DNA of 64,000 nt from positions 62,001-126,000 of the forward strand of contig JBGAIN010000003.1 of the NCBI GenBank assembly GCA_044225505.1, read 5' to 3'. The position numbers were made by a program, and so were the translations under genes. This DNA is from Limisphaerales bacterium (lineage in GTDB: Bacteria > Verrucomicrobiota > Verrucomicrobiia > Limisphaerales > SIBE01). Under the pieces are notes generated by a model. The model did no database searches. It was not told the DNA's origin and saw only the letters and a program-made list of their open reading frames with translations. Shown piece after piece: positions 8,838 to 56,136 of the stretch. Within the stretch, counting starts at the first letter, position 1. The number at the start of each line of letters is the position of its first letter.

Positions 8838-8945
8838 TGGGAAGCAAAAATTCAAGGCCAGAAATCGCCTTTAACCACCAGTGTCCAGAGTATTTAGGAA
8901 GGCGGACACCAAGCCGCGGCGGCTCTGCCCAAGCGCAGGTGCATT

Positions 8946-24794: not shown

Positions 24795-25610
24795 ATGAAA
24801 CTGCAGCGTATGCCCTTGCTTGGCTCNNNNNNNNNNNNNNNNNNNNNNNGTCAGGCTATGCCCGCCTTTCTCATCTCCCTGACACTGACCGCCGCGGCGG
24901 CCGTGAGTTCACCCGCTAGCGGACCCATGGCTGTCGATCGTGAAGCCGTCGCGTTTGTGTCGGATCTTCTCTTGCAAAGGCCGGGGAAAGAAATCGCCAT
25001 TGACGGCGTCTTTCACATTCGGACGAGCGAGGGCCGTCGTCGCGAAATCCCGGTAAACTACATGATCCGGCTCAATGAGAACGCGTGGCAGAGCATCTAT
25101 GCGACGAAAAGGACCGACGCGCTCGGTCCGGAACAGCTTGTCGTCACGCACGAAGCACGTGAGCCAAATCGATATCTGCTCCGTCAGATCAGCCCGGACG
25201 GCACGCGCACCAATACGCTGATGATCAATGGCTCTGAGGCGGCTGTCTCTCTAGCCAGTTCCGATTTCTGGCTGTCCGATCTTGGTTTGGAATTCCTGCA
25301 CTGGCCGGAACAGCGATTTGTGCGCGATGCCAAGATTACCATGAAGTATGGCCGCCCGTTAAAAGTCATTGAGAGTGTCAACCCGCGTCCTTCAGCGGGA
25401 ACCTATTCCCGAGTTGTTTCATGGATTGACTCGGAGCTCGGTAGTCTCGTGCGCGCGGAGGCCTATGATCTCGAGGGGAAACGCTTCAAAGTGTTCGAGT
25501 TGAAAAGCTTCAAGAAAGTGAACGGGCGTTGGCAGGTGAAAGATATGGAAATCCGCAACGAAAAAACCGACTCCCGGACACGCCTGGAGTTCAATCTCGA
25601 GGTGCAGTAG
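24795..25610 (+). CDS. Outer-membrane lipoprotein-sorting (LolA-like) protein
   Basis: SDFWLSDL, YSRVVSWID...AEAYD..GK, MEIRN...SRTRL. The 5' end is uncertain because of the N gap. Confidence 0.75.
   Translation: MKLQRMPLLGXXXXXXXXXQAMPAFLISLTLTAAAAVSSPASGPMAVDREAVAFVSDLLLQRPGKEIAIDGVFHIRTSEGRRREIPVNYMIRLNENAWQSIYATKRTDALGPEQLVVTHEAREPNRYLLRQISPDGTRTNTLMINGSEAAVSLASSDFWLSDLGLEFLHWPEQRFVRDAKITMKYGRPLKVIESVNPRPSAGTYSRVVSWIDSELGSLVRAEAYDLEGKRFKVFELKSFKKVNGRWQVKDMEIRNEKTDSRTRLEFNLEVQ
24827..24849. other. Assembly gap (run of N)
   Basis: Seen directly. Confidence 0.98.
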
Positions 25611-25913
25611 ATCAACTCCAGCGTGCCCGGCGCGTTAATCCGATAACTGATCCAACTTTCTAAGGGGCGCTTGCTCCTCTGGTGCTTTTTTCTGTGGTAC
25701 AGAGTCGTCTTGATCCGCTACTTCGACCGAAATCCATGGCTTTGGCGGACCTCACTTGGATTGCGCCTGATCATTGAGTTTGGTCTTTTGCCTGGAAAGC
25801 TGTGGACACTCGTTATTCCGCAGTTGAGGCGGCACGCCAACTCCAGGGCGAAACATCTCGAAGCTTGCTAGGCCTCAGGTGCTGCAGCCTGAAGCTCGAA
25901 GAAACCGCCAGGC

Positions 25914-26444
25914 CTATTTTATCGCCACCGAAATCACGCTCGGCGCAGATGTTAGGGGTTGTCCTTGGGGTGCCGTATACCGAACCAAAACCGAAATCTT
26001 GTTCTGCACCGGCTTATCATCCCCCCATAGCGGAGCGAGCTGGTAGCCCGTCCCGATCGATGTTTGAATCTCAAAAGCCTTAAGCTCGGAAGCAGAGTAG
26101 TGCCAGGTGTGCCGCGGCTCGGGAGGAACCGGATGGGTGATTCCCGGAACACCGTCGTACATCAAAACATCCAACGATCCGGCCACAATCGGGACCGGCT
26201 TGGGATTCCTTCGACTGCTGGCGTAGACTTTGATCACAAAGCCGTCCACACCGGGGACTTGATCTAGGTTCAACGCCACGGGAATAGCCAATAAGTTGAG
26301 CTCGTCGATGGGACCGTTACCCGCGTCCGCCAGGGGCCGCGGGTCTCTGTCCGGATGATCCGAAACGCAACCGACCCAGGCGCCTGCAGCCACCAAGGCA
26401 AGGATTAAACCTATCCATCTTCGTGGAAAGTCCATGCGCGGCAT
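25914..26444 (-). CDS. Putative lipoprotein, last gene of the T2SS cluster
   Basis: Basic N-terminus, hydrophobic helix, WVG|C lipobox-like site. Starts 12 bp after the secretin stop. Confidence 0.7.
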   Translation of the reverse strand: MPRMDFPRRWIGLILALVAAGAWVGCVSDHPDRDPRPLADAGNGPIDELNLLAIPVALNLDQVPGVDGFVIKVYASSRRNPKPVPIVAGSLDVLMYDGVPGITHPVPPEPRHTWHYSASELKAFEIQTSIGTGYQLAPLWGDDKPVQNKISVLVRYTAPQGQPLTSAPSVISVAIK

Positions 26445-26456
26445 AATGGTCTAGCT

Positions 26457-29400
26457 CTAATGCCGAGTCTTCTTCTTGGAAGGAGCTGTCGTGGATTTCT
26501 GCAGCCCATTGGGATAGAGCGGCTCGAGAAGCCGATCGCGGAAATCGTCTCGCTGGATCTGGTCGCGAATCGACGATCGTTCGAGCTGTTGACGTGTCAT
26601 TTCATCCAGGCCCTCGACTCGGCCAGGCTCAGTTCCCATTAACAGCACTTGAGGTGTGAGAAGAATCAGTAGTTCTTTGCGGTTCGTGACTTTCGTCTTG
26701 CTGCGAAACAGGACGCCTAGACCCGGAATGTCCCCCAAGTAAGGGACCTTTTTAATTCGATTGTCCTCGATGGTTTCGATCAATCCGCCGATCAGGATCG
26801 ATTGCCCGCTCTGCACGCTGACTGAGGTGCTGGCGCGACGTTCGTTAATAATCGGCATATTCACCGTCGACCCATCCGCACCGGATGGGATGGCAACGCT
26901 GGAACTGGTCAGGGCGCTGTTGGTGGTGCTGATTTCCATCCGGACTGCGCCGTCGGCTCCGATCCGTGGCGTGACCTGTAGATTCACTCCGACATTCTGG
27001 TAGTCAATCGCGTTCACAATACCCCCTTGAGGCGTGACGCTGCTGTTGCTGACCAAGGGAACCCGCTGACCAATATTGATCGTCGCCGGCTTGTTGTCGG
27101 CGGTGAGAATCTGCGGTCGGCTCAAGATTTCGAGGCGGCCGTCATTCTGCAAGGCGCGAATCAGAAAACCGTAGTCACTCCCGGTCACAGCGGCCGAAAA
27201 ACCGCCGAAACTCTTGAGATCGCCAGGCACGCCGAACGCCGTTCCGCTTGCGAGTTTGGCGTTCTCGACCATCTTGCTGACATTCCATTCCACACCGAGA
27301 TCCCGCGTGGAATCGAGCGTTACTTCGGCGAGTAGCACTTGAATTAGCACTTGGGGACGTGGTTGATCCAAGCTGACAATCAATTCTTTGACCTGAGCAA
27401 AATAGCGAGGACTCGCTGAGAGAAGCAAAGTATTGCTGTTCGTTTCCGCAACGATAGCGACTTCCCGTTCGAGCATACGTTGGGCCGTGCCAACGGCATC
27501 TTGGCCGAGCACTTGGGTAATGCGCTGCCGATCTTGGTCGAGAAATGTGCGAACGGCCGTGGCGATGTCCAAGGCTTGGGCGTTCTTCAACCGGTAGACT
27601 TCCGACTTACGCTCCTGCGCTTCGCTCGAATCAAGGGCTTGAATTATTTCCGAAACCAGTGCCACGTAGTGCTCCGTTCCACCCACCAGCAAACTGTTCG
27701 TGCGCTGATCTACCGTGACATGAAGAGCACCTTGTTCGTCCGTGCCCACCGTCGCCGAACCGACCTCCACCTCCTCGTGTGCCTCGGGGCCATCGTCCAG
27801 CGTGTTTTGTGGTGAGGCTTTTTCTTTAACCAGCGTGTATTGAATGGCTCGCTGCGAGCTGGCAACGCCGCCGGGCTGCAAACGAAATAGAGTCATGAGC
27901 AGATCCGACATGAGGCGCGCGTCGGCATTGATCAGGGTGAAGACTTTAATCTTCGCCTGTTGCGGTGAGCTGGAATCGAGCCGACTGATGATCTGCTCGA
28001 GAAGATTCATGTAGTCCACCGGAGCCGATACCACGAGCGCGTTCATGCGCACATCCGGAGTGATCAGCACACCCTCTTTAAGCGCCGAGGCGACAATTTC
28101 CCTGCCGTCCGTCGCACGCGCGATGAACTGCAGCAGTGACGCAGTGTTGGGACTCTGGTCGTTGAGCGCAACAGGCTTTGTGTTCAGCGCCTGGTTCAAT
28201 ATACTCGAGACCGAATCGGCGCGCGCATGTTGCAACGGAAAAATGCGCACTTCCGAGACTCGCCCCACTTGGTCCGTATCCAGTTTCTTGACCAAGTCCG
28301 CGATGCGCTTGAGGTCGCTTTCACCGGCGGACACGACGATGGCGTTCATGCGTTCATCTGGCGTCACGGTCACGGGAAATGCGCCACCTGGTCCGCCCTC
28401 ACGATAGAGCCCTTGCACGACCTGCGCGACACGACGCGCGTCCGCTTTGGCCATGGGAAAGACCTGCACGGTGACCCCCATCTGCGCCTGATCACTATCC
28501 AAGCGTTCAATGAGGGATGCCACCATGCTCATATCGTCGATGGAAGCGCCTACGATCAACGCATTCACCCAGGAGTCTGCCACCACGGAAATCGGTTCCG
28601 GAGGCTCACCCTTAATCCGAGACGGCCGGTTGGCGAAAAGACGCTGGAGCGTGCTTTGAAGTTTGGCCGCGGTTACTTGCTTGAGAACGAAAACGCGAAA
28701 ATTCATCCGCGCTTGGATGTCCTCGCCGTCCAACTGCTCGATCATTCGATCGATGACGTCGAAGCTCTCTTTGCCACCGGTGATCAACAAGGCGTTGACG
28801 CGATCATCGGCCACGACTGTCACAGGAATGGATCGTTCCGCTGCGGTTCCTCCAGCTTCGCTCGCGCGACGGGCGCGGAAGAATTGTTCGAGAACTGTTG
28901 CCAGACTGCTGGCCCGCGCGTGCTTGAGCGGATAGACACGAATATTTCCGCCCTGCACGAAGTCCTTGGTATCCATCTGGCGAATGACCTCTTTGATCAC
29001 CATTAGGTTTTCAGGGCTCGCCGAGACGACGAGCGTGTTACTGCGCGGGTCGACGGTAATCGCCATGGCTTCACGAGGCGCGTCACCGCGTGCTCCCCCC
29101 GAACCGGGACGATATAACCCTTGCTGAATCAGGGACCGCAGCATGTTGGCCACGCGTTGGGCATCGGCGTATTGCAGGGTGAAGGCTTGAACAACTCCTT
29201 CGTTCACAGCAGGTTCAACATCGATCTTTTGCAGCAAGCCGACAATCAACTCCAGGTTCTCGCGACTCGCGGAAATGATGAGGGAATTGTTCAGACTGTC
29301 CGGTTCCACTTTGATTTGATCCTGAGGAGACGGCGGCTGGCCAGGCACCGTCCGACTACGCAATCGGGCGGCGAAGATGTTTTCCAGAGTAGACGCAACG

Positions 29401-32400
29401 GTGGTCGAATTGTTGTGTCGCAGCCCCAGAACGGTCAGGACCATGGAAGGATCGTCCAAATGCTGGTCCAACCTCGAAACTAATTCGTCGATCGTTTGGT
29501 TGTCGTCAACCCCAGCGGCCACGAGCAAGCTATTACTCCGCGGATCCGCAACGATGACCGGACGGTTGCGCTGGGTGTCTGGTGACCGCGCCGCTTGATA
29601 CCGCTGGTTGAACAAGTTTATTAAGGAAGCAGACATCGATCGCGCATCTGCGTAAGCCAGCGGAATTAGCCGAATCCGGCCGCTCAAGGCGGGAGGAGCG
29701 GCGTCTAGTTCGCGGGCGAGCGACTCAACAAGCTCAAAGCTGTCATTAGAGCCCGCGACCAAGAGGCTGTTACTCCGGGTCTCGGGAATCACCAAAACCC
29801 GTAGGGCCTCAGCTTGCTGGCGTCCAAGGGCGGCTTTCTGAGTAACTCTCGCATCGAGCAATCGCTGCAACGAACCGGAGACGGCACCGGCATCGGCGTT
29901 TTGTAACGGGATTATCCGGACGTCTCGCAATTCCAATGGCAAGACTCGGTCCAACTGCGCCATTAGACCGTCGATAAACGCGAACGCTTTCTGGTTACCC
30001 GCAACGATGAGCGATTGGGTCCGATCGTCGACCGTTATATTGGGGATATCTTCGGTTCGCAATTGCGATGCCCGAGGCCCGCTATGGAGGTCCATAATTA
30101 TTTTTTGAACGACGGCCGGGTCGGCGTGTTCCAGGGCATAGACGCGGACATTGGCCATGCCCGATGCGGAAGGAATGTCCAATTGATTGATGACAGCCTC
30201 GATCAACGGCAAATTATCACTCCGGGCCGCAACGATCATCACGTTGGTGGTATCGTCTGCCTGGATGACGAGCGCGGATCGGGATTTCGGCTGCTCCGTC
30301 ACCGGTGCCTTCTCATCAGGCAGGACCGCTCGCAGCCGAGTGACTTGAGTGGCAAGTCCTTCTGTCCCGGGAACCGAGGGCCCCTCGGCGAACACAGATT
30401 GGAGCAACGGAGCCAAACGCCTCGCCGAAGCATGTTTGAGCTTAAAGAGTTTCACCTCCGTGATGAAACGATCCACCTTGCGATCGAGATCGTTGATCAC
30501 CTTTTGGGCCAAGTCGAGAGATTCTCTCTGGCCGCTTAGGATCACTGAGTTCGAGCGTTCGTCGATCGCAATATTCAGTGGGTTGACCAACGCCTTGCCG
30601 GTCGTGCCCTCCGGCTCGGCTCGCCCTACGGGTCCGTTGGCCAATCGTTGTCCTTGAGAAAAGACCGTGTTCAGCGTCTGCGAAACCGTGGCAGCGTCGG
30701 CAAACTGCAAATGGACCAGTTTAATGCTCACTCCCTCAGCCACGGGAACGCTATCCATCATTTCCACCACCGCGGCCAACGCCTTGAGATTGTCCGGGGT
30801 GGAAGAAAGGACGAGGCGGTTTCCGCCGCCCTGACCGCCACCAACCGGGTCACCCATCACCCGAATGGGTTTGGTCAAATCGAGGACGACCTCTTTGCCC
30901 TCGTCGTTCTTGATCCGAAGAAGGCGAATCTGCTCCTGCAACTCTCGCGCTTCTGTGGTAGCCTCTCCTTGAGCCCCAGGTTTGAGCATCGTCTGAATTA
31001 CCGTTGCCAACTGGGATGCGTTCGCCTTCTTTAACGACACGACCAAGACCTGAGCTTCGGAGTACGAGGCTGGGGTATCGAGCGAATGAATCATCCCTTC
31101 CACTTGCTTCAACACTGCGTCTCTGGCGACAACAAACAAGCCATGCGCACGAGGGTCCGGAGTAACGCTCAGGGGTTCGCCCGGACGAATAATGTTCAGC
31201 TGCGCCACCATTTGCTGGACGAGGGGTGCCACTTTCTGAGGCGGGGCGTTCGTCAGCGAGACGACCCGGAATTCCAATTGAGAGCTAACACCCGCGACAT
31301 CGAGCTGTTTGATCAGCGATTCCATGAGCGTAAAGTCTGTTGGCTTGGCTCGGACGATCACGCTTCGGGTCCGTGGTTCCGCGACCGCCGTCACCTTGGG
31401 GGTTTGCGTGAGAACACGGATTTCGCCAGGGCGCTGCATTTGTTGCTGCTGTTGCTGCAACTGCTGCTGCTGCTGTAGTTGCAGCTGCTCCGGGCGGAAG
31501 AGATCGCTAAGGGTTCTCGCCATTACGACAGGATCCGCCTCTTTTAGAGGGAATACGCGAAACTCAGCGTCACTGCTGACGTAAGAGAAAGAGAGCTCGG
31601 AGAGGATATGATCAATCTGATCCAACTCGTGGGTCGGTCCGGAAAGAATGAGCGCATTGGCCGTCTTGTCGACCGCCACGACCACCTCTGGGAGCGAATC
31701 CTCGGCCGGCGCTTTGTTTTCCGGCGCGCTGTCTTGCGCCGAAGGCTGCAACGTTCCTGACCGGTTTGGACTTGGAACCGTGGAGCTCCTGGTTTTATCG
31801 GGTTTAGCCGCCGCTTCGATCTTTTCCACGACTCGAATCAGTCCCGTGGACATTTGTGGGTAAATATTCTGGAGCATGCGGGCCATCTGTTCGACGGGGA
31901 CCCGGTCCAGAGGACGCAACCGCACTTGGATGCTGGTGTCTTTACTGGATTCGTCCAGGCGGGCGATCAGGTCTTGGACTTGGATAATATCGGCATGTTT
32001 TCCGATAACCGTGATCGAGTTATTGAAGATGTCCGAGTCAATCACGGGCTTATCCCCTTCCGACCGTCCGGCGAAGACGGCATCCAACTTTGACGCCACA
32101 TCAAAGGCCTTGGCGTTGCGCAGCCAAACAAACTGCACGTCACGCTCCGCGCGATCGGGGACCTTGTCCAGGGTACTCAAAAGTTGCTCGACGACTTTGA
32201 AGTGGGCTTGGGTTCCAGACATCACAAGGCTATTGGACCGTTCATCGACCGACACGGACGGTTGGATTAAACGTGCGGGGGTGCCCGCGCCGGCAGTCAA
32301 GGAAGCCCTAAGACGTTGCTGGCCTCGAGTAATATTTTGCAGCAATTGTTGAATCACGGTCGAGATTTCATGCGCATTGCCGTTTTCCAACTTGTAAATG

Positions 32401-35400
32401 CGCACTTTAATTTCGTCGTCCTCGCTTTCTTGATCCAGGTCCCGAATCACTTGCATGACATCTTGAACCGCGTCGGATGGACCATTCACGAGGACGCTAT
32501 TTGGACCGATCACCGGAGTGACCGTGACCCGTTGGAGTCGAGTTTGTGGGCCCTTCGAAGCGATCGTCTTGCTAACGGCATCGGCAACGTTCTCCGCGTG
32601 AGCCTTCTTGAGTCGGACCGTTTGTATGACAGTACGACTGTCGACTTCATCGCGATCAAGGGTTTGGATTATTTTCTCGGCCAAGGCCAGTTTCTCCGGC
32701 GGGCCCTGTACGACGACTGCATTTAATGAACGCGCTGGAGCAACCCGGACGGTCTTGGCATCGGCGATTGGCATCAATCCGACGCCCGGACGCCACTGCA
32801 TGCGTCGTTGCCGCGGCTGGCCCGGTTGCGGAGCATCTCCGTCCGTTAACATTGATTGCAGCACCTCCGCAATCTGCGCTGGTTCACCGTTCTGAAGCTT
32901 GAACGTGCGAATCTCGCTCGCGACACGTGCCGTATTCTTTAGCTCCTCAATCAGTTTATCGATTTGGACAAATTGTTCTTTGGTAGCCGCGACCATGAGG
33001 ACATTGGCCGCTGCGTCGGCTTCGAAACGCGGAGCCAATCCCGAAGGGACCGACTGTCCTGCCTTCTCCGAAAAGAGCCGGGCCAGCGTGGGGGCCAGGT
33101 CAGTCGCATTGCCCTCGGGCATTTGGTAGGTGCGAAGCTCCACTTTACCGAGGGATTCCTCACCATCCAAAGCCTTAACGAGTTGCTCGACGCGCTCGAG
33201 GAGAGGAGCTGTGGCTTCCAATACGACGGTCCGATCGTCGCCCGAGGCACTGACTGCCAATCGCAAGCTTGGATCCTGGCTCGAGACTTGCCGGCCAAAC
33301 AGCTGGGAAATCATCGCCGCCACGGAAGTGGCAGAATTGCGCTGCAAGCTGAGCACTCGCATCTGGCGCCCTGTCCCCTCGGCGACTTCCTGCAACTGGC
33401 TGACGATCCCCTCGATGAGTTTCATGTGCGATTCGCCCGCCGCGATAATCAGCCGGCTGCTAATGTCATCGCCCATAATGATCGCGTCCGCAGGACTCGT
33501 CTTGGCTTTCCCTTTCAGTTGATCTTGATAGAGCTGTTTGACGCGCGTCGCCAATTCGCTAGCCAAGCCCGATTTGAGCGCGAGGACTCGCATTTGCCGC
33601 GGCTCTTTCGCGAGCATGGCATCCATCTGTTCCACAATGACAGCGGCAGACTGCAAGTCTTGCGGAGCTCCCGAAACGATGAGCAGATTATTCTGGAGAT
33701 CGCTCCCGACACTTACTCTCGGGGTGCTGCGCCCGTTGGCTCCAATCTGCACGAGTGCCGTCGACAGGATGGTCGCCACTTGCGGCGCCTCCGCAGACTT
33801 CAACTTGAAGACTCGAGTTCGGCCAGTCTGCGCTTCGGTCTTGTCGATCTTCTGAATGATCTCGTCGATGATATGGAGATCGTTGGTGGTGGCCGAGACG
33901 ATGAGCCGATTCGCGTTGGCGTCGGGCAAGAGCAAAGCCTGACTCGACGGCGGCGTCGGGTGAGCTTTCATCGCTTCCTGATAAAGCGCCTTGACCGTGA
34001 TCGCCAATTCTGGCGCGGCCGTTGAAGTGAGCTCGTAGACTCGGGTCTCACGCGCATCGAGAACCATGGCGCTGGTCATGAGTTGGGTCACAATCCCCTC
34101 AATGAGATTCAACTGTTTCTCCGTTCCGGCCAGGATCAGCTGGTTGCTAGTACTATCATCGAGCATGAGGACGTCACTGGTGCTCAGCTCGGGTTGGGCT
34201 TTCACCTGGTCGTCGTAGAGGGCTCGGACTTTAGTCAGGATCTCCGCCACCTTTCCGGAGGTGATCGGCAACACTTTCATGCGCCGCTCCGGCTGCCCGC
34301 CTAAGGTGGAATCCAATTGGTCAATAATAACTGAGACACCTTGGAGTTCCTTCGGATCGCCCGCAGCGATGATCGTGCGTGATTTTGGGTCCACGCTCAC
34401 GCTCACTCGCTTGCGCGGTCTGCCGTAAGCATCGTAGCTGACCAACGCATTCGAGAGGATCTCCGCCACCTTGTCCGGTTCGGCCGATTTCACTTTAAAG
34501 ACGCGAACAGACGCGCTTTGAGCGCTGACCTTATCCAGCTTCTTGATGATATCTTCCACCAACGCCAACTCATGAGTCACCGCGGTGACGATCAATCGGT
34601 TCGCACTGGCGTCTGGCAGGATCGCCGTATCCTCCAGCCGAACATTCGGCCGGTTTTTGGCTTGTTCCTGGTACAAGGAACGCACTGTAACGGCGAGTTC
34701 CATCGCCGTGGCGGTGGTGAGATCGTAAATTCGAGTCTCGCGTGCGGCCAAGTCCGTGTTTCCCGCACGCAACTGTTGAACGATGGCCTCGATCTCAGAG
34801 AGGTGATTCGTTCGCGCTGTGACAATGAAGCGCGCGTTGCGGCTGTCCGCTACGATTTGAGCGTCTGCAGGATCGCCAACCGAGCGATCGCGCCAATGTT
34901 CACGGTAAAGCTGCTGAACAAGGGGCAGCAACCGCTGCATCTCGTCGGTCTGGCCTATCTCGATCAATTTCGTCTCGCGCGGTCCCTTTTGCACTTGAGC
35001 GGACTGGAGATCCGTAGCGATCTGCTCGACTAGCGCCAATTGCGCTTCGCTTCCGGCGAGGATGAGTTGGTTGCCCGGGGTATCCTCCAGCATGAGCACG
35101 TCCGTCGCGGCCAAGTCGGGTTTGCTCGCAAGCTGATCATTATAGAGCTGGCGAATCTTCGGCATCATGTCAGCTACCTTGGCCTGTTTCAGCGTCAGCA
35201 CTTTGATCTTACGTTCGGCTTGCTGTCCGAGCGCGTTGTCGAGTTGCTCAATGATAATCGCCGCATTCTGCAGCGATTGCAGTTCCTTGGGGTCCCCTGC
35301 AACAATGATACTGCGAGTTTTGGCATCCGAAGTGACGCCCACCCTGCGTCGGGCGCGGCCATAAGAGTCGTAGCTGGTGAGGGCGTTTCCAAGAACCTCA

Positions 35401-38400
35401 AGCACTTTCGTTGGGTCCGCGTATTTGAGTTTGAACACTCGCACTGTCCCGCTCTGCGCGCTCACCTTATCGAGCTTCTGAATGATCGCTTCCACCGCCG
35501 CCACTTCTTCGCTTTCACCGCTGACAATGAGACGATTTGAGGCACTGTCAGGTAAAATAAGAATATCAGGTGTTACGGTCCCAAGTCGGCTTCGGGCTTC
35601 GTCCTGGTAGAGGGTTCGAACCGTATTGGCTAACTCCCCTGCGCTCGCTGTAGTCAGTTCGAAAATGCGGCTCTCTCGAGCTCCCGCGTGAGGTTTACCC
35701 GAGGTCAACTGATTCAGAATGACTTCGATTTGCTTAATGTGGTCGGGCTTGCCGGTGACCATGAGACGCCCAGAGCGGGCGTCACCAAGAATCTGCGCGT
35801 CGGCCGGATCCGAGTCGCCTTTTTCTTTCCATTGTTCCTGGTAAAGTTGTTGAACGAGCGGGACTAACCGTTGAACATCTTCCGCGCGCCCCACGTCGAA
35901 GGCACGCGTTTCTCGCACCTGAGCAGTACTGCTGATCATCGTATCGACGATCTGGTGGACTGCAGCCCCTTGATCTTTTGTGCCATACACCAACAATCGC
36001 GTTCCTGTGCTATCCGGGTAAATGGAAGCGGGTTTCACGACTTTGCCCTGGTTTTGTTCTCCGTAAATGCGCCGGACAGTGGGAAGGATCTTCTGGGCAC
36101 TCGCTGTTTTGAGTTCCACGGTCTGGAGTTCTCGAGCGCCTTGGTCCGGTTTGGCATCGAGCGTGGCGATGACTGTCTCGACTTGAGAAATCATTGAAGC
36201 AGGTGCCAGAACGATCAATCGCTTGCCTGACGGTTCGGGTGTGATCGTGACCACGGCTGCTACATTGCGATTCGCGTTCTGGGCGGTGAACACTCTCATC
36301 GCTGTCGCCGCTAGCCCTTCGGCATCATCAGTCGCGACATCGATGACTTTCAAACTTCGCCCCTTCTCCACGCCCTCGCCGTCCAAGCGTTCGATGATGG
36401 CTTGAGCGTCTTGAAGGTCCACCCGCGATCCAGAGACGATGAGGCTGTTCGACTTTTCATCGGCCGATACGGAGACTAAACGAATTGGCCGATTCCGCGC
36501 ATCGAACCGCACCATAGCGTTGGATACAACCGACACCATCGTCGACGCATCCGCGAACGCGAGTTTGAAGACCCGCGCCATTCCCGCGGTTTCTGGAACC
36601 TGATCAAGCTGTTCGACAAGGCTGGCCACCGTTTTCAGCTCATCTTTACTGCCGGTCACAATGAGCCGATTCCCAGTAGCATCCGGCACAATTTTCGTCT
36701 GTGGCTTATAGTCAGGGCCGCGCTGGTCACGGATCATTTCCGTGAACAGGCTTGTGACCATCGGCGCGACGGTGTTGGCTTCGGCCGACTTCAGCTCGAT
36801 CAGGCGAAGTTCCCGCGGAGAGACGTCGGACTGGGTGTCGAGCTGCTGGATAATTTGAGCGGCGGCCTCGACGGCTGCGGACTCGCCTGTGATCACTAAC
36901 GAGTTGCTGCGCGTGTCAACCAGAACTTTCACTTGTTGGGCCTGAGCGCTAAGACTCTTTTCCACTAACCCGGCCAGATCAGCCGCGACGGCCGCCTTCA
37001 ATCGAATGACCCGCGTTTCGTCTTTTGTCCCTTTTCGTCCCTCGGGGTCGAGTTGACGAATAATCGACTCAACGCGCGCGATCTCCTTGTCCGAGCCGCT
37101 GACCATGATACGATTGTTCTTTGTTTCCGCGAGGAGTGCGGCCGGACCGCCAGCGGGTTCAGGTTGGCCTTTGAGCTGCTCCTGGTAGAGCTGCTGAACC
37201 AGGGGCGTCATTTCCGCGGCGTTGCGACTAAATAATTCCACTCCTTTGAATTGCCGCGACGTCGCGGAAACCGATGCGGAATCGAGACGCTGCAAGAGGT
37301 CGGTGACACGCACTAAATCCTGCGGCGTCGCCAGCACGATAATCTGCTTCCCAGATGCATCGGGAATCAGCTTCGGTGCCGACTGAGGATTAGCTTGCCC
37401 TTCCCCGAGCTGGCTCATCAACTGCGACGTGAGCGCGATCAGGTCACTGGCGGATTTGCTCTGCACGGGGATCACTCGCATTTCCCGCTGGCCTTTTTCA
37501 GGACCAACGTCGATGGCTTCGACAACTTGGGCGATCTCCTTGAACTGGCTCTCCGTCGCTGTGACCAACAGCCGATTATTGTTGGAATCCGGTAGAATCA
37601 ACGGTTTCGCGAGATCCTCAAAACGCTTGTCGTTCATTCGTTCCGCAACCAAGTTGGTGATGCTGGAGATCGCCGAGTCGACGCGTAAATGCTTGAGTGC
37701 CACCATTTGGAGCGAGCGTAATTGAGGCTGGGCCTTCTCCGTCTTAAGCTGCTTGATAATCTCCTCGATTTTCCGGAGATGCTCTTCACTAGCCGTGACG
37801 ATGAGCCGACCCGTTTCCGCATCAGCAAGGATCTTGGCGTGGGCCGTTTGCCCACCCACGCTGTCGCTGATCTGACTACGGTAAATCTGTTCGATGAGGG
37901 GCTGCAGTCGTTTGGCTTCCGCGATCGTGCCGACGTCAATGAGTTTCGTCTGCTGCGGTGCAGGAAATGCCGAGCCGTTTTCGAGCTGGCTAATAATGTC
38001 AAGAGCCGTTTGGACGTCGCCGGGTGATCCAGTCACAACGACACTCTGGCTGCTCGGCTCCACCGTTACGTTCGCGGTTGAAATCTTGCTGCCCCCTGGA
38101 ATCCGTTTGCTCAGTGCATCTGAGAGGATCTTGCCGAGGCTCGCAGCGTCCGAGTTCCGTGGCCGGAATACTTTTGTCACTTGAATGCTCTGTGACCGGA
38201 GGGAGCCGCTTCCCGTGCCGTGAACGGGTTTGTCGACTTTGTTGATGAGGGTTTCGATCGCGTCTAACTGCCCGAGAATCGGGGCGGCCACGATTAAGCG
38301 GTTCTGCGCGGAGTCCACAATCAGTCGAGCCTTGGTAGCAGCCGCTGCGGCGGTATCGTTAGGGGCCGCCACGCCTGGCACAGCTTGCCGGATCATCTGC

Positions 38401-39431
38401 GCGAGATCCTCCGCCTTGGTATCCTGAGGGAAATAGATCCGCACGTCACCCGCCCCGGCGCCATCCTTATCTTCAAATTTGGAAATCAGTTCCTCGGCCA
38501 ACCCGATGCGCTCGCGCGGGCCGAACAAGACTAACGTTCGGGAAGCATCGTCATAGACAGCGGTGACGTATTCGTTGGGATCTGGAGGAAGAGTATCCAA
38601 TTGCTTGGTCTGCTGATTGAATTGGGTCCGCTTCGGCGCTGTGGTTGCCCCAAAAGTCCGATTGATCAAATCCGAGACGACCGCCCCGGAGGCGTGCAGC
38701 AACGTGAATGACTTCATTTGGCGTTCCGCCACGGTCTGGCTGTCGATCATGGTCAGGAGACTGCGCACGCGCTGAATATTCGCCAGCCGGTCCGTAACAA
38801 TCAGCCCTCGGCCGCGGGACAAGGGTGCCACAGAACCAGCGTTCGATAGCATCGACGTCACTCCGTCCGCAGCCTCCTTGGCGTCCAGGTTCTTGAGATC
38901 CAGAACGACGGTCACGATTTCGCCAGGACGCACATCCCCCGTTTTTTCGAGGCCTCGCAGGATCCTGACGGGCATTTGTGGAATCTGCTTTAGCGGCACG
39001 AGACGCAGGTAGTGATCTGATTCGATGAGGGTCATATCCTTCATCGAAAGCATCAGATTGAGAGTATCGAGCGCTTCCTGATAGGTGTAAGGGTTTGGAT
39101 CGTTGAAGCTAACGGTTCCTTGGAGATTGGTATCGGCGACCAGAGGCTTATTGGCCATCTGGGCAAAGCGCTCTAGCATATCGGCATAGGGGATTCCTTC
39201 GAATTGAAAGCGAATGTTGCGCACGGTGCTGGAGGCGTTTAGCGCACTAGCACTGGCGGTCGAATTCTCGGCCTCCTTCACCGAAGAAGACAGCACTGCG
39301 GAATTCGTGGTCGACGCCGCCAATGCAGATGCACTGGCATTGGGTTGGGCCGAACTTGGGACTTCGGCGCAAAAACCCAACCTTGCCGCCATACAACCTG
39401 CCAGGACCAAGGTAACTTTGATTCTATTCAT
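26457..39431 (-). CDS. gspD: Giant secretin (GspD-like), 4324 aa: N0, about 47 Secretin_N (NolW-like) repeats, C-terminal secretin domain
   Basis: N0 (IRFQFEGIPY...GTVSF). Repeated R.F.L..A.A...V..D.RSNSLIV.G...I.QLD units. Secretin domain PQVLIQVLLAEV, LSRPQILTADNKPATINIG, ILIGGLI, KVPYLGDIPGLGVLF, ELLILLTPQV. Confidence 0.93.
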   Translation of the reverse strand: MNRIKVTLVLAGCMAARLGFCAEVPSSAQPNASASALAASTTNSAVLSSSVKEAENSTASASALNASSTVRNIRFQFEGIPYADMLERFAQMANKPLVADTNLQGTVSFNDPNPYTYQEALDTLNLMLSMKDMTLIESDHYLRLVPLKQIPQMPVRILRGLEKTGDVRPGEIVTVVLDLKNLDAKEAADGVTSMLSNAGSVAPLSRGRGLIVTDRLANIQRVRSLLTMIDSQTVAERQMKSFTLLHASGAVVSDLINRTFGATTAPKRTQFNQQTKQLDTLPPDPNEYVTAVYDDASRTLVLFGPRERIGLAEELISKFEDKDGAGAGDVRIYFPQDTKAEDLAQMIRQAVPGVAAPNDTAAAAATKARLIVDSAQNRLIVAAPILGQLDAIETLINKVDKPVHGTGSGSLRSQSIQVTKVFRPRNSDAASLGKILSDALSKRIPGGSKISTANVTVEPSSQSVVVTGSPGDVQTALDIISQLENGSAFPAPQQTKLIDVGTIAEAKRLQPLIEQIYRSQISDSVGGQTAHAKILADAETGRLIVTASEEHLRKIEEIIKQLKTEKAQPQLRSLQMVALKHLRVDSAISSITNLVAERMNDKRFEDLAKPLILPDSNNNRLLVTATESQFKEIAQVVEAIDVGPEKGQREMRVIPVQSKSASDLIALTSQLMSQLGEGQANPQSAPKLIPDASGKQIIVLATPQDLVRVTDLLQRLDSASVSATSRQFKGVELFSRNAAEMTPLVQQLYQEQLKGQPEPAGGPAALLAETKNNRIMVSGSDKEIARVESIIRQLDPEGRKGTKDETRVIRLKAAVAADLAGLVEKSLSAQAQQVKVLVDTRSNSLVITGESAAVEAAAQIIQQLDTQSDVSPRELRLIELKSAEANTVAPMVTSLFTEMIRDQRGPDYKPQTKIVPDATGNRLIVTGSKDELKTVASLVEQLDQVPETAGMARVFKLAFADASTMVSVVSNAMVRFDARNRPIRLVSVSADEKSNSLIVSGSRVDLQDAQAIIERLDGEGVEKGRSLKVIDVATDDAEGLAATAMRVFTAQNANRNVAAVVTITPEPSGKRLIVLAPASMISQVETVIATLDAKPDQGARELQTVELKTASAQKILPTVRRIYGEQNQGKVVKPASIYPDSTGTRLLVYGTKDQGAAVHQIVDTMISSTAQVRETRAFDVGRAEDVQRLVPLVQQLYQEQWKEKGDSDPADAQILGDARSGRLMVTGKPDHIKQIEVILNQLTSGKPHAGARESRIFELTTASAGELANTVRTLYQDEARSRLGTVTPDILILPDSASNRLIVSGESEEVAAVEAIIQKLDKVSAQSGTVRVFKLKYADPTKVLEVLGNALTSYDSYGRARRRVGVTSDAKTRSIIVAGDPKELQSLQNAAIIIEQLDNALGQQAERKIKVLTLKQAKVADMMPKIRQLYNDQLASKPDLAATDVLMLEDTPGNQLILAGSEAQLALVEQIATDLQSAQVQKGPRETKLIEIGQTDEMQRLLPLVQQLYREHWRDRSVGDPADAQIVADSRNARFIVTARTNHLSEIEAIVQQLRAGNTDLAARETRIYDLTTATAMELAVTVRSLYQEQAKNRPNVRLEDTAILPDASANRLIVTAVTHELALVEDIIKKLDKVSAQSASVRVFKVKSAEPDKVAEILSNALVSYDAYGRPRKRVSVSVDPKSRTIIAAGDPKELQGVSVIIDQLDSTLGGQPERRMKVLPITSGKVAEILTKVRALYDDQVKAQPELSTSDVLMLDDSTSNQLILAGTEKQLNLIEGIVTQLMTSAMVLDARETRVYELTSTAAPELAITVKALYQEAMKAHPTPPSSQALLLPDANANRLIVSATTNDLHIIDEIIQKIDKTEAQTGRTRVFKLKSAEAPQVATILSTALVQIGANGRSTPRVSVGSDLQNNLLIVSGAPQDLQSAAVIVEQMDAMLAKEPRQMRVLALKSGLASELATRVKQLYQDQLKGKAKTSPADAIIMGDDISSRLIIAAGESHMKLIEGIVSQLQEVAEGTGRQMRVLSLQRNSATSVAAMISQLFGRQVSSQDPSLRLAVSASGDDRTVVLEATAPLLERVEQLVKALDGEESLGKVELRTYQMPEGNATDLAPTLARLFSEKAGQSVPSGLAPRFEADAAANVLMVAATKEQFVQIDKLIEELKNTARVASEIRTFKLQNGEPAQIAEVLQSMLTDGDAPQPGQPRQRRMQWRPGVGLMPIADAKTVRVAPARSLNAVVVQGPPEKLALAEKIIQTLDRDEVDSRTVIQTVRLKKAHAENVADAVSKTIASKGPQTRLQRVTVTPVIGPNSVLVNGPSDAVQDVMQVIRDLDQESEDDEIKVRIYKLENGNAHEISTVIQQLLQNITRGQQRLRASLTAGAGTPARLIQPSVSVDERSNSLVMSGTQAHFKVVEQLLSTLDKVPDRAERDVQFVWLRNAKAFDVASKLDAVFAGRSEGDKPVIDSDIFNNSITVIGKHADIIQVQDLIARLDESSKDTSIQVRLRPLDRVPVEQMARMLQNIYPQMSTGLIRVVEKIEAAAKPDKTRSSTVPSPNRSGTLQPSAQDSAPENKAPAEDSLPEVVVAVDKTANALILSGPTHELDQIDHILSELSFSYVSSDAEFRVFPLKEADPVVMARTLSDLFRPEQLQLQQQQQLQQQQQQMQRPGEIRVLTQTPKVTAVAEPRTRSVIVRAKPTDFTLMESLIKQLDVAGVSSQLEFRVVSLTNAPPQKVAPLVQQMVAQLNIIRPGEPLSVTPDPRAHGLFVVARDAVLKQVEGMIHSLDTPASYSEAQVLVVSLKKANASQLATVIQTMLKPGAQGEATTEARELQEQIRLLRIKNDEGKEVVLDLTKPIRVMGDPVGGGQGGGNRLVLSSTPDNLKALAAVVEMMDSVPVAEGVSIKLVHLQFADAATVSQTLNTVFSQGQRLANGPVGRAEPEGTTGKALVNPLNIAIDERSNSVILSGQRESLDLAQKVINDLDRKVDRFITEVKLFKLKHASARRLAPLLQSVFAEGPSVPGTEGLATQVTRLRAVLPDEKAPVTEQPKSRSALVIQADDTTNVMIVAARSDNLPLIEAVINQLDIPSASGMANVRVYALEHADPAVVQKIIMDLHSGPRASQLRTEDIPNITVDDRTQSLIVAGNQKAFAFIDGLMAQLDRVLPLELRDVRIIPLQNADAGAVSGSLQRLLDARVTQKAALGRQQAEALRVLVIPETRSNSLLVAGSNDSFELVESLARELDAAPPALSGRIRLIPLAYADARSMSASLINLFNQRYQAARSPDTQRNRPVIVADPRSNSLLVAAGVDDNQTIDELVSRLDQHLDDPSMVLTVLGLRHNNSTTVASTLENIFAARLRSRTVPGQPPSPQDQIKVEPDSLNNSLIISASRENLELIVGLLQKIDVEPAVNEGVVQAFTLQYADAQRVANMLRSLIQQGLYRPGSGGARGDAPREAMAITVDPRSNTLVVSASPENLMVIKEVIRQMDTKDFVQGGNIRVYPLKHARASSLATVLEQFFRARRASEAGGTAAERSIPVTVVADDRVNALLITGGKESFDVIDRMIEQLDGEDIQARMNFRVFVLKQVTAAKLQSTLQRLFANRPSRIKGEPPEPISVVADSWVNALIVGASIDDMSMVASLIERLDSDQAQMGVTVQVFPMAKADARRVAQVVQGLYREGGPGGAFPVTVTPDERMNAIVVSAGESDLKRIADLVKKLDTDQVGRVSEVRIFPLQHARADSVSSILNQALNTKPVALNDQSPNTASLLQFIARATDGREIVASALKEGVLITPDVRMNALVVSAPVDYMNLLEQIISRLDSSSPQQAKIKVFTLINADARLMSDLLMTLFRLQPGGVASSQRAIQYTLVKEKASPQNTLDDGPEAHEEVEVGSATVGTDEQGALHVTVDQRTNSLLVGGTEHYVALVSEIIQALDSSEAQERKSEVYRLKNAQALDIATAVRTFLDQDRQRITQVLGQDAVGTAQRMLEREVAIVAETNSNTLLLSASPRYFAQVKELIVSLDQPRPQVLIQVLLAEVTLDSTRDLGVEWNVSKMVENAKLASGTAFGVPGDLKSFGGFSAAVTGSDYGFLIRALQNDGRLEILSRPQILTADNKPATINIGQRVPLVSNSSVTPQGGIVNAIDYQNVGVNLQVTPRIGADGAVRMEISTTNSALTSSSVAIPSGADGSTVNMPIINERRASTSVSVQSGQSILIGGLIETIEDNRIKKVPYLGDIPGLGVLFRSKTKVTNRKELLILLTPQVLLMGTEPGRVEGLDEMTRQQLERSSIRDQIQRDDFRDRLLEPLYPNGLQKSTTAPSKKKTRH

Positions 39432-39484
39432 GACGATCGATTCTCAGGCTCACTTAATTCAGACGGTCAAACTGCTGCTTTAAA

Positions 39485-40495
39485 TCACATTTTTCTGGCG
39501 CCGGCTCCGGCATCGAGCTTCGGAGTTAGGTCCGGCAGTTCGTTCGCCGCCAAACGCCGCTTGTCAGCCAGGGTCTGGCCCCGCTCCACGGCCCAGTACT
39601 CATCACCCACCTTCAAGATCAGCCGGCTGAAAGATTTCAACCCTTCATTTCCAGGCATCGGCATCGGACGATAGTCCACCATCGCAATGGTGCCATCTCC
39701 GAGTTTGTCCCCCAGCTTGTAACGCACGGTTTGCTGATGCGTAATATCCCGAATGTGCACTTCCGGCTGTCCTCCCCATTCAGAAAGCGAAACTACTCGT
39801 AGACTTGCGGGTCCAGCCGGCTCGGATGGATTCTCGGATCCGGGAACTGGTCTGTCAGCGGGCCGCTTGATATAAGGCCGCAGCAGATCGCGCGCAGCAA
39901 TGCCATCCAATAGATGGCGCTCCGGTCCATCCAAGTTGGCTTTGACCGGCAGATCGATCGGATCGACTAGGGGAGCAGGATCCACGACCAATGTGAGAAA
40001 GCGAAAGCCCACTCGGACCTGCCCGGGAAGCTCGCTCGCGGAGACAGAAAGGTTTTCGATACGGTGGAGATATGGCGAATTCTGCAGGAGGAACATCAGG
40101 TTGACCACACCGGTCAATTTGCCTTGTCCCTGGATGCTCCACCCGATTTCGCTAGCCCCTCGCAACCGGCGCGGTCCAACGGGCATTCGGCTGAAATCGA
40201 TTTCGGTCAGGCCGCTGATCAGAATCTGTTTGGTAAGCATTTCGCCAGATTTGGCGCTGGCCTGGTCGATCTGGTCCGAGAATGTGCGTTGGGTCAGACG
40301 CTTCACATTCTCTTCCGCCGCAAAGTAAGCGCGGCGCTCCGCCTTTACCTTGTCGAGTTTCTCGCGCAGGGCCGCGTTCCGCTTATCGATTTCCCGAAGC
40401 GGCTTCAACATCACAGCTCGAATGCCGAATACCGCGACGAACAGCCCCAAGATGCTCCCCACAACCACCAACAGCTTTTTCTCGCGTGCGTTCAC
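39485..40495 (-). CDS. GspM/PilO-like inner-membrane platform protein with additional C-terminal domain (possibly GspC-like)
   Basis: MNAREKKLL plus TM plus coiled coil plus ferredoxin-like stretch (LHRIENLSV). Then RDLLRPY, a Pro linker and a beta domain (VRYKLGDKL). Confidence 0.65.
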   Translation of the reverse strand: MNAREKKLLVVVGSILGLFVAVFGIRAVMLKPLREIDKRNAALREKLDKVKAERRAYFAAEENVKRLTQRTFSDQIDQASAKSGEMLTKQILISGLTEIDFSRMPVGPRRLRGASEIGWSIQGQGKLTGVVNLMFLLQNSPYLHRIENLSVSASELPGQVRVGFRFLTLVVDPAPLVDPIDLPVKANLDGPERHLLDGIAARDLLRPYIKRPADRPVPGSENPSEPAGPASLRVVSLSEWGGQPEVHIRDITHQQTVRYKLGDKLGDGTIAMVDYRPMPMPGNEGLKSFSRLILKVGDEYWAVERGQTLADKRRLAANELPDLTPKLDAGAGARKM

Positions 40496-42246
40496 GAGCG
40501 ACCTCCAGGGGTGCCTGGTTTCCGTTTCGGGTCGAGCGATCCATCATCAGCAGGGCGCGCTGGCGTTTGGACCTTGCCTAGATCCACCTTCATCTTGGCC
40601 GGGACGATCAATTCCACCGTGGATCGGAAGTTATAGCCGTGCCGATCGCTGCCAGGGGTGATGGCTAAGGGTTTAACTTCGTAGCCCGCCGCCCGAAGTT
40701 GTCGATCGAGATTGGCGAGAATCTCGCCGCTCCGCGCCTGAACGGCCAAATGGATATTACCTTGTCCACTCACCGAGATCGAGGTCAGGTAAAGGTCTTC
40801 GCTCCCTGGCAGAACGGCGCTGAGGTAAGCGTATTGCTCGAGCCAATTGCGTCCATCCTTCGACCAGTTCTGCAGCGTTGCCGCCTGCTGCTGCATGCGC
40901 CGAAAGATCGGAACTTTCTTTTCGTTGTCCGCAAGTTCTTTCTGCAATTCGCGGCTGACGGCCAGCCGTTTATGAATAAAGTGGCTTCGAGTGGCCATGA
41001 GGGCGATGAACGCCACCAACCCCAGAGTCGCAAAGGCCAATGTTCGAATCCGTTTCGTATTCCGCTGCACGGCCGGCCGTTTTGGACTTAGGAAATCAAA
41101 CGGCAACCCGGTGGTATCGTTGATCCCAAGCGCCAGTCCGAGTGCGCCAATCGAACCCGCTACGTGCTGACGACCGCCAGAAGGCAGGTCCACGCCACGG
41201 GGTTCCGGCAAAAGTTCGCAGGTCAGATTGAGTCTTCGCTGCAAGACCTCCAGCAATCGGGTTTCTTGTCCCGTGGCTCCCGCGATCACCACTCGGCTGA
41301 CCGGTCGGTCTCGTTCGGTTCCATTGTAACTATGCAGACTCCGGACAACTTCGATGGTCGTGAGCTCGACGGCATCCGGTTCGACCACCGAACCCAAGGC
41401 ACGAGTGGCCGCTGCGCTAGAGTCCGGAGCCGCGTCCCCGGGTTTTGTAGCATTCGGCTCGTTTTGAATGGCTTGCAGTCGAGCCCCGCGGCTGAAACGC
41501 AGCACCCCCCCAGCCACGATGTCAATCCCAACCTCGTCCGGGCGGACGGAAACCAAAGCCACCGCTCCTGCGTCCGGAGCGATTCCGCAAGCGTCAACCC
41601 AACGCGCATGCGCCTGAGATAGCCAACCCAGCGCCACGAGCTTGACCTTCGCCGCCGCCGCAATCTGGGTAAACAGATCAACCGTCTCTTGCCGGACAGC
41701 AGCAACGAGAACTTCGACCTTCGGGGCACTCGCCGCCCCATCCGAACTCTCGTTTGCGCCGGGCGCTCCGTTTCCCGTCCCGCGCCCCTCCGACCGCTGG
41801 CCCCGGTTTACCACCTGAAAATCGATGACCGCTTCGTCCAGACGGAAAGGCAATTCCTTACCGATCTGCAAATGGACGATCGACGCCATTTCGCGCACAT
41901 CTGTGATGTCAGGGAGTGTGAGCGTACGCAACACGACCAACTGCCGGGGAATTCCCATCACGACTTGCGATGGTTTCAAGCGAAGATCGTCAAGAACTGC
42001 CGCGGCGGCTTTACCCAATGCTTCCGGATTAGGAGCTGCGCCCGGATTATCTAGATCAAGTTGGCCCACTTCGATTCGGGTGATCGCGGTGGCACTGCCC
42101 CGAGGTGCGCTTTGCACAATACGCAGCGTCTGACCTTCGATGTCCAATGCCGTGATTGGACCAGGCCGGCGGACGTTCTGCTGCCGCCGAAACCCAAAGT
42201 TCAGGGCTTTGCGAGATGGGGCCGTGATCGCTGGGGCTTCAGGCAT
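40492..42246 (-). CDS. GspL-like PilM-PilN fusion protein
   Basis: Actin-like start ITALDIEG, VLRTLTLP, LPF..DEAVIDF, FDFLSP, one TM, coiled coil, PilN-like LYLTSISV. Confidence 0.75.
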   Translation of the reverse strand: MPEAPAITAPSRKALNFGFRRQQNVRRPGPITALDIEGQTLRIVQSAPRGSATAITRIEVGQLDLDNPGAAPNPEALGKAAAAVLDDLRLKPSQVVMGIPRQLVVLRTLTLPDITDVREMASIVHLQIGKELPFRLDEAVIDFQVVNRGQRSEGRGTGNGAPGANESSDGAASAPKVEVLVAAVRQETVDLFTQIAAAAKVKLVALGWLSQAHARWVDACGIAPDAGAVALVSVRPDEVGIDIVAGGVLRFSRGARLQAIQNEPNATKPGDAAPDSSAAATRALGSVVEPDAVELTTIEVVRSLHSYNGTERDRPVSRVVIAGATGQETRLLEVLQRRLNLTCELLPEPRGVDLPSGGRQHVAGSIGALGLALGINDTTGLPFDFLSPKRPAVQRNTKRIRTLAFATLGLVAFIALMATRSHFIHKRLAVSRELQKELADNEKKVPIFRRMQQQAATLQNWSKDGRNWLEQYAYLSAVLPGSEDLYLTSISVSGQGNIHLAVQARSGEILANLDRQLRAAGYEVKPLAITPGSDRHGYNFRSTVELIVPAKMKVDLGKVQTPARPADDGSLDPKRKPGTPGGRS

Positions 42247-44663: not shown

Positions 44664-45131
44664 CTAGCGCGTTGGGCTCTCTTTGGAGAGAGGCGCTGCG
44701 GAACCTTCCTCGGTACGCAAGCTCTGGGTCATTCGGTAGATCAATCCCGACGGAGCATGGCGAATAATGACTTCGACCTGTCGCAACGGCGAAGCATCAT
44801 CCTCGCCCGGTGCTTGGGGCGCCACGGAGACTTCCCAAGTCCAGCCGTCGATCGGAGGTTCGAACGGTTGCGGTCCGCTCAGCGTCCACGTCTTGACGCC
44901 CATTTGCAGTTCGGACATGACGGTGACTGCCAAATCTGCAGCATGAGTGTTAGCCCGCAGGCGCTCGACACTATCCAAGGACGAACTTAAACCTCCGGAA
45001 AGGACGGCCGCGGCGCCGACAAAAAGGACTAACGCCAAAACGACTTCGAGCAGAACCGCTCCTGACCGGCCTGTCGAAGGCGGCCAGAAGTCGCAATGGC
45101 TAACCCGGTTCTTTCTCAACGCTAGGCACAT
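44664..45131 (-). CDS. Minor pseudopilin, GspI-like
   Basis: G|AVLLEVVLALVLF (Glu5), WTWEVSV, LRQVEVII. Start moved to ATG 45131. Confidence 0.75.
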   Translation of the reverse strand: MCLALRKNRVSHCDFWPPSTGRSGAVLLEVVLALVLFVGAAAVLSGGLSSSLDSVERLRANTHAADLAVTVMSELQMGVKTWTLSGPQPFEPPIDGWTWEVSVAPQAPGEDDASPLRQVEVIIRHAPSGLIYRMTQSLRTEEGSAAPLSKESPTR

Positions 45132-45165
45132 GTGCTGAGACAGCTCGGCGAATGCGGCCGGGCCG

Positions 45166-56122: not shown

Positions 56123-56136
56123 TTCAAGTCCTCCGT

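Follow-up and report, generated by a model that had tools for sequence, protein, structure and literature searches.

A giant type II secretion system secretin with 47 tandem N domains in a Limisphaerales bacterium and its proposed function as a long periplasmic conduit

Gene and Domain Layout of the Giant Secretin

We analyzed a stretch of 64,000 nucleotides from a Limisphaerales bacterium (GenBank assembly GCA_044225505.1, contig JBGAIN010000003.1, positions 62,001 to 126,000), referred to here as the window. It carries a complete operon for a type II secretion system (T2SS), the last gene of which encodes a secretin of 4324 amino acids (aa), P0001. A first-pass annotation, made from the letters of the DNA, had described this gene as an uninterrupted open reading frame (ORF) of 13 kb, and the translation agrees: 26457..39431 on the minus strand holds 4324 codons without a stop, while the longest ORF in the other five frames across this interval measures 353 aa. 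The gene and its parts are as follows.

26457..39431 (-): giant secretin gene (P0001), a single open frame of 4324 aa
39366..39431 (-): signal peptide, residues ~1-22, read from the sequence; then an S/A-rich linker as far as residue ~70
38928..39218 (-): N0-like domain, residues ~72-168, from a weak PF21305 match and our own hidden Markov model (HMM) of the region
27366..38927 (-): 47 tandem Secretin_N domains R1-R47, residues 169-4022 (40 stretches with Pfam, 47 with our own HMM)
32613..36116 (-): copy-number-variable cassette region R13-R27, residues 1106-2273, from alignment occupancy and repeat scores
26643..27155 (-): secretin pore domain (PF00263), residues 4093-4263, followed by a C-terminal tail of ~60 aa

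The pore domain was recognized by PF00263 with 163.7 bits against a cut-off of 27.5, covering profile positions 1-168 of 169, and its nucleotides 26643-27155 lie within the interval (~27360-26640) to which the first-pass annotation had assigned it. The Secretin_N profile PF03958 reached a total of 1202 bits in P0001. Pfam thus confirmed the pore domain, while it resolved the repeats into 40 separately significant stretches rather than the 47 that had been counted by hand. The figure of 47 was recovered by our own HMM, which places every repeat within residues 169-4022 at E<0.01 (worst 4.2e-8). Since this model was iterated from the repeats of P0001 itself, it serves to count copies and says nothing independent about the family; the assignment of the repeats to Secretin_N follows instead from the Pfam matches and from the fold described below. 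The canonical GspD architecture consists of N0 and three N domains in ~650-750 aa, and P0001 departs from it with 47 N domains in 4324 aa.

The period of the repeats ranges from 69 to 121 aa, the long periods being due to loop insertions within a domain, for example in R31 (P/S-rich) and R32 (poly-Q). The insertion in R31 is a P/S/A-rich segment of ~45 aa, and that in R32 a poly-glutamine tract, LQLQQQQQLQQQQQQMQ, at window positions 31434-31484 (-), residues ~2650-2666.

The signal peptide was identified by eye: the N-terminus is basic and carries a hydrophobic stretch and an AxA-like site, the latter kept in the orthologue consensus. Cys13, within the motif LAGC, was considered as a lipobox and rejected, because the orthologue consensus has no conserved Cys at this position.

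Pore Type and Fold of the Repeats

To P0001 as a whole, the GspD model TIGR02517 gave 1273 bits against an equivalog cut-off of 351, a total that is inflated by the repeats; the cut-offs of TIGR02516 (type III secretion system, T3SS) and TIGR02515 (PilQ) were likewise exceeded through repeat inflation. The best TIGR02517 stretch comprises residues 3811-4263 and profile positions 147-590 of 600. When the last 450 aa of P0001 were compared with proteins of solved structure, the closest were T2SS GspD chains (5wq7, 6.9e-43; 6hcg, 9.7e-43), and the solved GspD entries, with 15 chains each, ranged from 6.9e-43 to 1.4e-35, against 7e-27 or worse for PilQ chains and 1e-18 for T3SS secretins. The protein does not group with PilQ: its pore is nearer to GspD, and in place of a PilM-N-O-P-Q context it has an operon with GspG-K pseudopilins. 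P0001 is almost certainly a genuine giant T2SS secretin.

To examine the fold of the repeats, R37-R41 were modeled with AlphaFold2 from an alignment with 18 orthologue rows. The model contains five beta-alpha-beta-beta-alpha domains joined by linkers of 8-10 residues, with a mean predicted local distance difference test score (pLDDT) of 73. The best Foldseek matches to it were all T2SS secretin N domains, with a probability of 1.0. In structural alignments with VIA-align, a single repeat superposed on XcpQ N3 with Z 10.4 and a root-mean-square deviation (rmsd) of 1.9 Å over 67 residues, and the matches to N domains of canonical GspD-type secretins had Z 9.9-10.4 and rmsd 1.7-1.9 Å. Three repeats superposed on XcpQ N0-N1-N2 with Z 10.8 and rmsd 4.7 Å over 170 residues. 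The Secretin_N identity of the repeats proposed in the first-pass annotation, which a failure to score or fold as Secretin_N would have contradicted, is therefore borne out by the 40 Pfam stretches together with the fold match to XcpQ N3 (Z 10.4). A multimer prediction with four copies of R37-R39, run without controls, gave scores of 0.10 and 0.00 relative to a mark of 0.42 and speaks neither for nor against ring formation.

Repeat Array and Central Cassette Region

Most repeats of P0001 are old, and they differ clearly among themselves, with pairwise scores of ~60-100. A different pattern is seen in a four-domain super-repeat that comprises R14-17, R18-21 and R22-24, with older copies at R5, R10 and R11; the best partners (R14-R18, R15-R19, R16-R20 and R17-R21) score 188-235 against a background of ~60.

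We aligned 47 full-length homologues to P0001 and determined the occupancy of each repeat. R1-R15 and R28-R47 showed occupancies of 0.96-1.0, while R19-R21 were aligned in 13-15% and R26-R27 in 38% of the homologues, and the homologues carry inserts of 309-536 aa in the central region. Mean identity across all repeat units was 0.47-0.76 over the aligned homologues. Judged from this alignment, ~35 repeats are conserved position for position and copy number varies only in the central region R13-R27. The array is accordingly a stable, position-specific architecture, the center of which changes in length by whole cassettes.

Gene Integrity, Selection and Expression

DNA nearly identical to this locus is present in sequencing runs of several studies, studies of activated sludge among them. 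We placed contigs from three DNA runs, which belong to two other studies, on 25501-40500. Their collinear pieces of 7.5-8.9 kb leave none of the 30 bins empty, and over this interval the contigs show neither indels nor joints. The independent contigs thus span the gene without a break, and the misassembly that the first-pass annotation had named as a possible objection is now very unlikely, given collinearity, the absence of indels and orthologues of the same size. The strain differences listed inside the gene number 33, of which 29 are synonymous and 4 are conservative replacements (27 further differences within the 15-kb stretch lie outside this list). Because 29 of the 33 are synonymous, the comparison indicates purifying selection along the whole length of the giant secretin gene.

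One metatranscriptome run (X20) yielded eight pieces in all. Four of these, of 163-219 nucleotides (nt), lie inside the giant gene, and a fifth, of 244 nt, falls within the GspM-like gene described below. Three RNA matches of 21-32 nt at the poly-Q tract (31450-31481) were discarded as spurious, as their ends are long and unlike. The pieces in the giant gene may stem from DNA carry-over and do not establish expression.

Relatives of the Giant Secretin

A protein search limited to lengths of 2,378-7,567 aa returned 367 proteins at E<=1e-10. The 120 homologues listed from these are 3,590-5,121 aa long and 39-82% identical to P0001, and by our own HMM they have 38-56 repeats (median 43). Their named sources are Verrucomicrobiota, Pedosphaera or Limisphaerales metagenome-assembled genomes (MAGs), with one labelled Methylomirabilota, and their database labels are solely GspD or 'secretin N-terminal domain-containing protein'. 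The first-pass annotation had noted that long secretins are annotated in some genomes of the Planctomycetes-Verrucomicrobia-Chlamydiae (PVC) group.

In 151 genomes sampled from the order of the window, the N-terminal 401 aa of P0001 were matched in 37 genomes, which belong to 26 of the 107 genera. There were 39 matched places, and for 25 of them the surrounding open frame measures 3,597-5,155 aa; the shorter frames may include some cut by contig ends. To extend the comparison, 1.84 billion cluster representatives were scanned with the last 450 aa of P0001 and the best 150 proteins were taken, a ranking that favors many-repeat proteins since repeats add to the score. Of these 150, 103 look full-length: they start with M, measure 2,349-5,532 aa and are matched near the N-terminus by the HMM of the N0-like region of P0001. 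PF21305 (N0) is also precomputed on several orthologues.

A phylum-wide search with PF00263 gave matches in 395 of 401 genomes. Among the best 150 of ~1,950 matches, only the P0001 gene exceeds 1,339 aa, and no length distribution can be derived from these. A peptide-pattern search for similar loci with the whole of P0001, for which the patterns were poor, returned just two loci, both distant: one is a Duganella secretin, the other lies in a Phycisphaerales MAG. On the contig of the latter (L002, 118-11533 (+)), GspK (862 aa) is followed by a PilM-like protein (534 aa), a protein of 390 aa without assignment and then a multi-Secretin_N ORF. This ORF has at least 11 Secretin_N stretches, runs for 1,936 aa or more until the contig end cuts it off, and is 23% identical to P0001. 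The Phycisphaerales MAG shows the same gene order in another PVC phylum.

The T2SS Operon

Upstream of the giant secretin gene and on the same strand, the genes follow in the order GspE-F-G-H-I-J-K-L-M, with D as the last gene.

47988-49862 (-): GspE ATPase (PF00437, 453 bits)
46766-47977 (-): GspF platform protein (PF00482, 172.5 bits)
46010-46762 (-): GspG (TIGR01710, 99 bits against a cut-off of 88.85)
45166-45993 (-): GspH, weaker family match
44664-45374 (-): GspI, weak family match
43888-44649 (-): GspJ, weak family match
42239-43891 (-): GspK, 550 aa, weaker family match
40492..42246 (-): GspL-like protein with a PilM-type actin-like N-domain, 584 aa (PF11104, 46.5 bits; TIGR01175 pilM, 1.7e-15)
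39485..40495 (-): P0123, a bitopic protein of 336 aa matching no Pfam or NCBIfam family (AlphaFold2 pLDDT 79)
25914..26444 (-): lipoprotein-type protein of 176 aa (…WVGC), 12 nt downstream of the secretin gene

The giant secretin is thus found together with GspE, GspF, GspG-K, GspL and GspM, the identification of GspI, GspJ and GspM being weak. The GspG ORF is listed with 250 aa and has its prepilin cleavage/methylation motif at residues 87-109; relatives align to it only from about residue 66. Its true start probably lies further downstream, or else the leader is unusually long.

The model of P0123 shows a transmembrane helix, a long helix, a GspM/PilO-like domain, a low-confidence linker of ~55 residues and a beta domain. 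Residues 79-172 match PilO with Z 13.8 and rmsd 1.9 Å, EpsM/GspM with Z 9.2 and PulM with Z 8.7. Residues 229-306 match the homology region (HR) of GspC in the enterotoxigenic Escherichia coli GspC-GspD N0 complex (3oss_C) with Z 6.8 and rmsd 2.1 Å, the alignment including 61 residues of the 65-residue chain. P0123 has 633 homologues, and none of the 120 listed carries a Pfam domain. No separate GspC was found with Pfam or NCBIfam. On the strength of the model, we propose with moderate confidence that P0123 is a fusion of GspM and GspC(HR), which would dock N0 on the inner-membrane platform.

The 176-aa lipoprotein-type protein had no match in Pfam or NCBIfam and is a candidate pilotin or accessory protein.

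We examined the gene neighborhood in five relatives. The upstream Gsp genes are syntenic in four of them, one of which is cut by a contig end, and the fifth has GspE and GspF downstream instead. A P0123 homologue upstream of the secretin and a homologue of the 176-aa lipoprotein directly downstream of it were each found in 4/5 relatives.

Other Secretins in the Same Genome

Five more secretin-domain genes, all of ordinary size, are present in the 9.0-Mb assembly. One of them, a second T2SS-type secretin, looks like a canonical GspD, with N0 and three Secretin_N domains and a GspK-like gene upstream (L003, G000:C303). This second GspD is split into an ORF of 604 aa at 6656-8470 (+), with N0 and the three Secretin_N domains, and a pore ORF of 419 aa at 8400-9659 (+); the two share 71 nt, read in different frames. 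A frameshift or an assembly error could have produced the two parts, or the gene may be naturally split.

Two of the five genes adjoin PilM genes. At L006 (G000:C78), a 939-aa secretin with N-terminal TPR repeats (8901-11720 (-)) is clustered with a 635-aa PilM-domain protein and several large proteins without a family match. At L007 (G000:C246), 8880-10790 (-) encodes an odd fusion of 636 aa between a BlaR1-type M56 peptidase and a partial secretin domain, the latter matched with 35.7 bits over profile positions 7-123 of 169.

Proposed Function as a Long Conduit

The secretins of the textbooks span the envelope as channels whose periplasmic part has three to six tiers. We compared P0001 with characterized members of the family. 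It resembles the canonical GspD proteins, PulD and XcpQ (15-mers 5wq7, 6hcg, 5wln, 5zdh), in its pore type, its Secretin_N fold, its N0-like region and its place at the end of a GspE-M operon. It differs from them in size, with 47 N domains where they have three (N1-N3) and 4324 aa where the solved chains have 624-657 aa, and in that no separate GspC gene accompanies it, a GspC-HR-like domain appearing fused to the GspM-like protein instead. In a survey of outer-membrane pores, the secretin family averages 555 +/- 151 aa (PMC4827864).

PilQ of Thermus thermophilus (757 aa), with six stacked rings N0-N5, provides a precedent for extra N rings that lengthen the channel to suit a wide periplasm, and a passage of PMC5745081 calls its six rings exceptional. 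It belongs, however, to a type IV pilus/DNA-uptake machine with six tiers, while P0001 belongs to a T2SS and would have ~48, about eight times as many as the largest characterized secretin. The top Foldseek match of the repeat model was the GspD of Deinococcus radiodurans, DR_0774 (8co1). This protein is described in PMC10828601 as a pentadecameric GspD whose height of ~350 Å matches the thick envelope; it comprises N0-N3 and a flange domain in a modeled chain of ~740 aa and has no long tandem array like that of P0001. In the two characterized long secretins, Thermus PilQ and Deinococcus GspD, length does match envelope thickness. Single repeats of P0001 have the predicted fold of ring-forming N domains, with regular linkers of 8-10 aa.

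The first-pass annotation had suggested axial stacking into a tube of >100 nm that would fit an enlarged PVC periplasm, and we propose the following mechanism. The subunits would form a ~15-mer, as in all solved secretins, with each N domain making one ring tier stacked along the channel axis, so that N0 and the 47 N domains would give ~48 tiers. At ~3-4 nm per tier the conduit would measure ~150-200 nm if fully extended, and it would probably be flexible. The value per tier is our own estimate, scaled from the 350-Å, six-ring Thermus PilQ with a division of its height between pore and rings that we assumed. The GspC-HR-like domain that appears fused to the GspM-like neighbor would be the inner-membrane dock for the N0 end, and the pore would sit in the outer membrane, possibly aided by the downstream lipoprotein. 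Such a machine would take T2SS substrates, together with the pseudopilus, across places with a periplasm far wider than that of model bacteria, and the central cassette region would tune its length between species (38-56 repeats). In favor of such a cell plan, strain Ellin514, of verrucomicrobial subdivision 3, is reported to possess a paryphoplasm compartment (PMC2647929). In later literature this compartment has been read as an enlarged periplasm.

Taken as a whole, a giant T2SS GspD that forms a long stacked conduit is the explanation we lean towards, by a modest balance of the evidence. Axial stacking of the repeats into a long conduit, which is suggested by analogy with solved secretins, we regard as having a little under an even chance. 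More tentative still is the full picture, in which all 48 tiers lie in a single conduit of ~150-200 nm and the cassette region is an evolvable length ruler, matched in these PVC bacteria to outer-membrane protrusions or to a periplasm that is enlarged or widened locally; this we consider somewhat less likely than not.

Several observations weigh against the long conduit. In the R37-R41 model the predicted template modelling score (pTM) is 0.45, so that the relative orientation of the domains is unreliable. The N0 domain named in the first-pass annotation is matched by PF21305 at residues 85-140 with 22 bits (E 1.4e-4), below the cut-off of 27 bits. The GspC-HR match of P0123 is middling, as a Z of 6.8 can reflect a common arrangement. 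A tube of 150-200 nm, if straight, would take up much of the width of a typical bacterial cell. The five other secretins of the genome are of ordinary length, and ordinary-length machines must therefore also span the envelope, which means that the periplasm is not uniformly >100 nm wide; this favors a specialized role, or local widening, for the giant secretin. No orthologue was detected with the N-terminal 401-aa query in 114 of the 151 genomes of the order, and the giant design is thus not a general need of the lineage's envelope. The passages on strain Ellin514 give no periplasm width (PMC2647929), and the strain may not be closely related to the present genome.

The strongest alternative is that only the pore-proximal domains form rings and that most of the 47 act as beads on a string, an elastic tether or spacer that links the pore to the inner-membrane platform as the width of the periplasm changes, or that threads through or binds the cell wall, without a closed tube. 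The short but regular linkers and the low confidence of AlphaFold2 in the arrangement of the domains (pTM 0.45) are compatible with this, and differences in copy number between species by whole cassettes are expected of a spacer. Many of the solved GspD maps show N0-N2 with poor order, a hint that the distal rings are weak. However, ~35 repeats with a position-specific identity of 0.47-0.76 are under more constraint than a passive spacer needs, and every characterized secretin N domain sits in a ring, as stated in a passage of PMC5745081. We consider a tether unlikely, while taking it seriously.

A second alternative is a compact or multi-layered assembly, in which the chain zig-zags and several consecutive domains, for instance the four-domain unit, share a tier; the product would be a thick-walled or wide cage of ~40-60 nm and not a tube of >=150 nm. 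A cage had already been raised in the first-pass annotation, the central region does show a four-domain super-repeat with four recurring domain types, and secretins of normal length coexist in the same genome. Yet the super-repeat can be made out in R5-R24 only, and the history of duplications would suffice to account for it, the linkers of 8-10 aa match those of axially stacked N domains, and we know of no secretin that packs several domains per tier. A compact assembly therefore seems improbable to us.

It is very unlikely that the long frame fails to yield a single functional protein, being instead an assembly artefact, a decaying gene or a precursor cleaved to an ordinary-size secretin: although the RNA consists of four short contigs in the gene and one in the GspM-like gene, from one metatranscriptome run that possibly contains DNA, the independent contigs are collinear without indels, the strain differences are 29 synonymous and 4 conservative, full length is kept in many genomes down to 39% identity, and processing would not account for the conserved N-terminal repeats.

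A full-text literature search found no description of secretins of this size, most subscription journals and supplements being outside its reach. Such proteins are already in the databases as GspD, and they appear to be a large, diverse and unstudied family. If the long conduit is real, no other known protein channel across the periplasm would come near it in length, and type II secretion and its pseudopilus would act over at least five times the distance found in model organisms. A conserved family with ~40-55 tiers challenges current ideas on the reach of the pseudopilus 'piston', on substrate entry and on the width of the PVC periplasm, a long-debated question. It would also offer a genetically encoded ruler that can be compared with tomograms, by setting the series of 38-56 repeats against envelope dimensions.

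Other Genes in the Window

Directly upstream of GspE, window positions 50169-52724 (-) encode an 851-aa protein of the phospholipase C/phosphoesterase family (PF04185 and PF05506). It may be a T2SS substrate. We considered it as a conserved, dedicated substrate of the T2SS and dropped the idea, as no homologue was found beyond GspE in G536 and G428, the two relatives with DNA past GspE that were checked. Further upstream, at 54755-58860 (-), lies a gene pair encoding a 907-aa PSCyt/PSD-domain protein (DUF1592, 1588, 1585, 1587, 1595) followed by a 455-aa DUF1552 protein, a combination typical of Planctomycetes and Verrucomicrobia.

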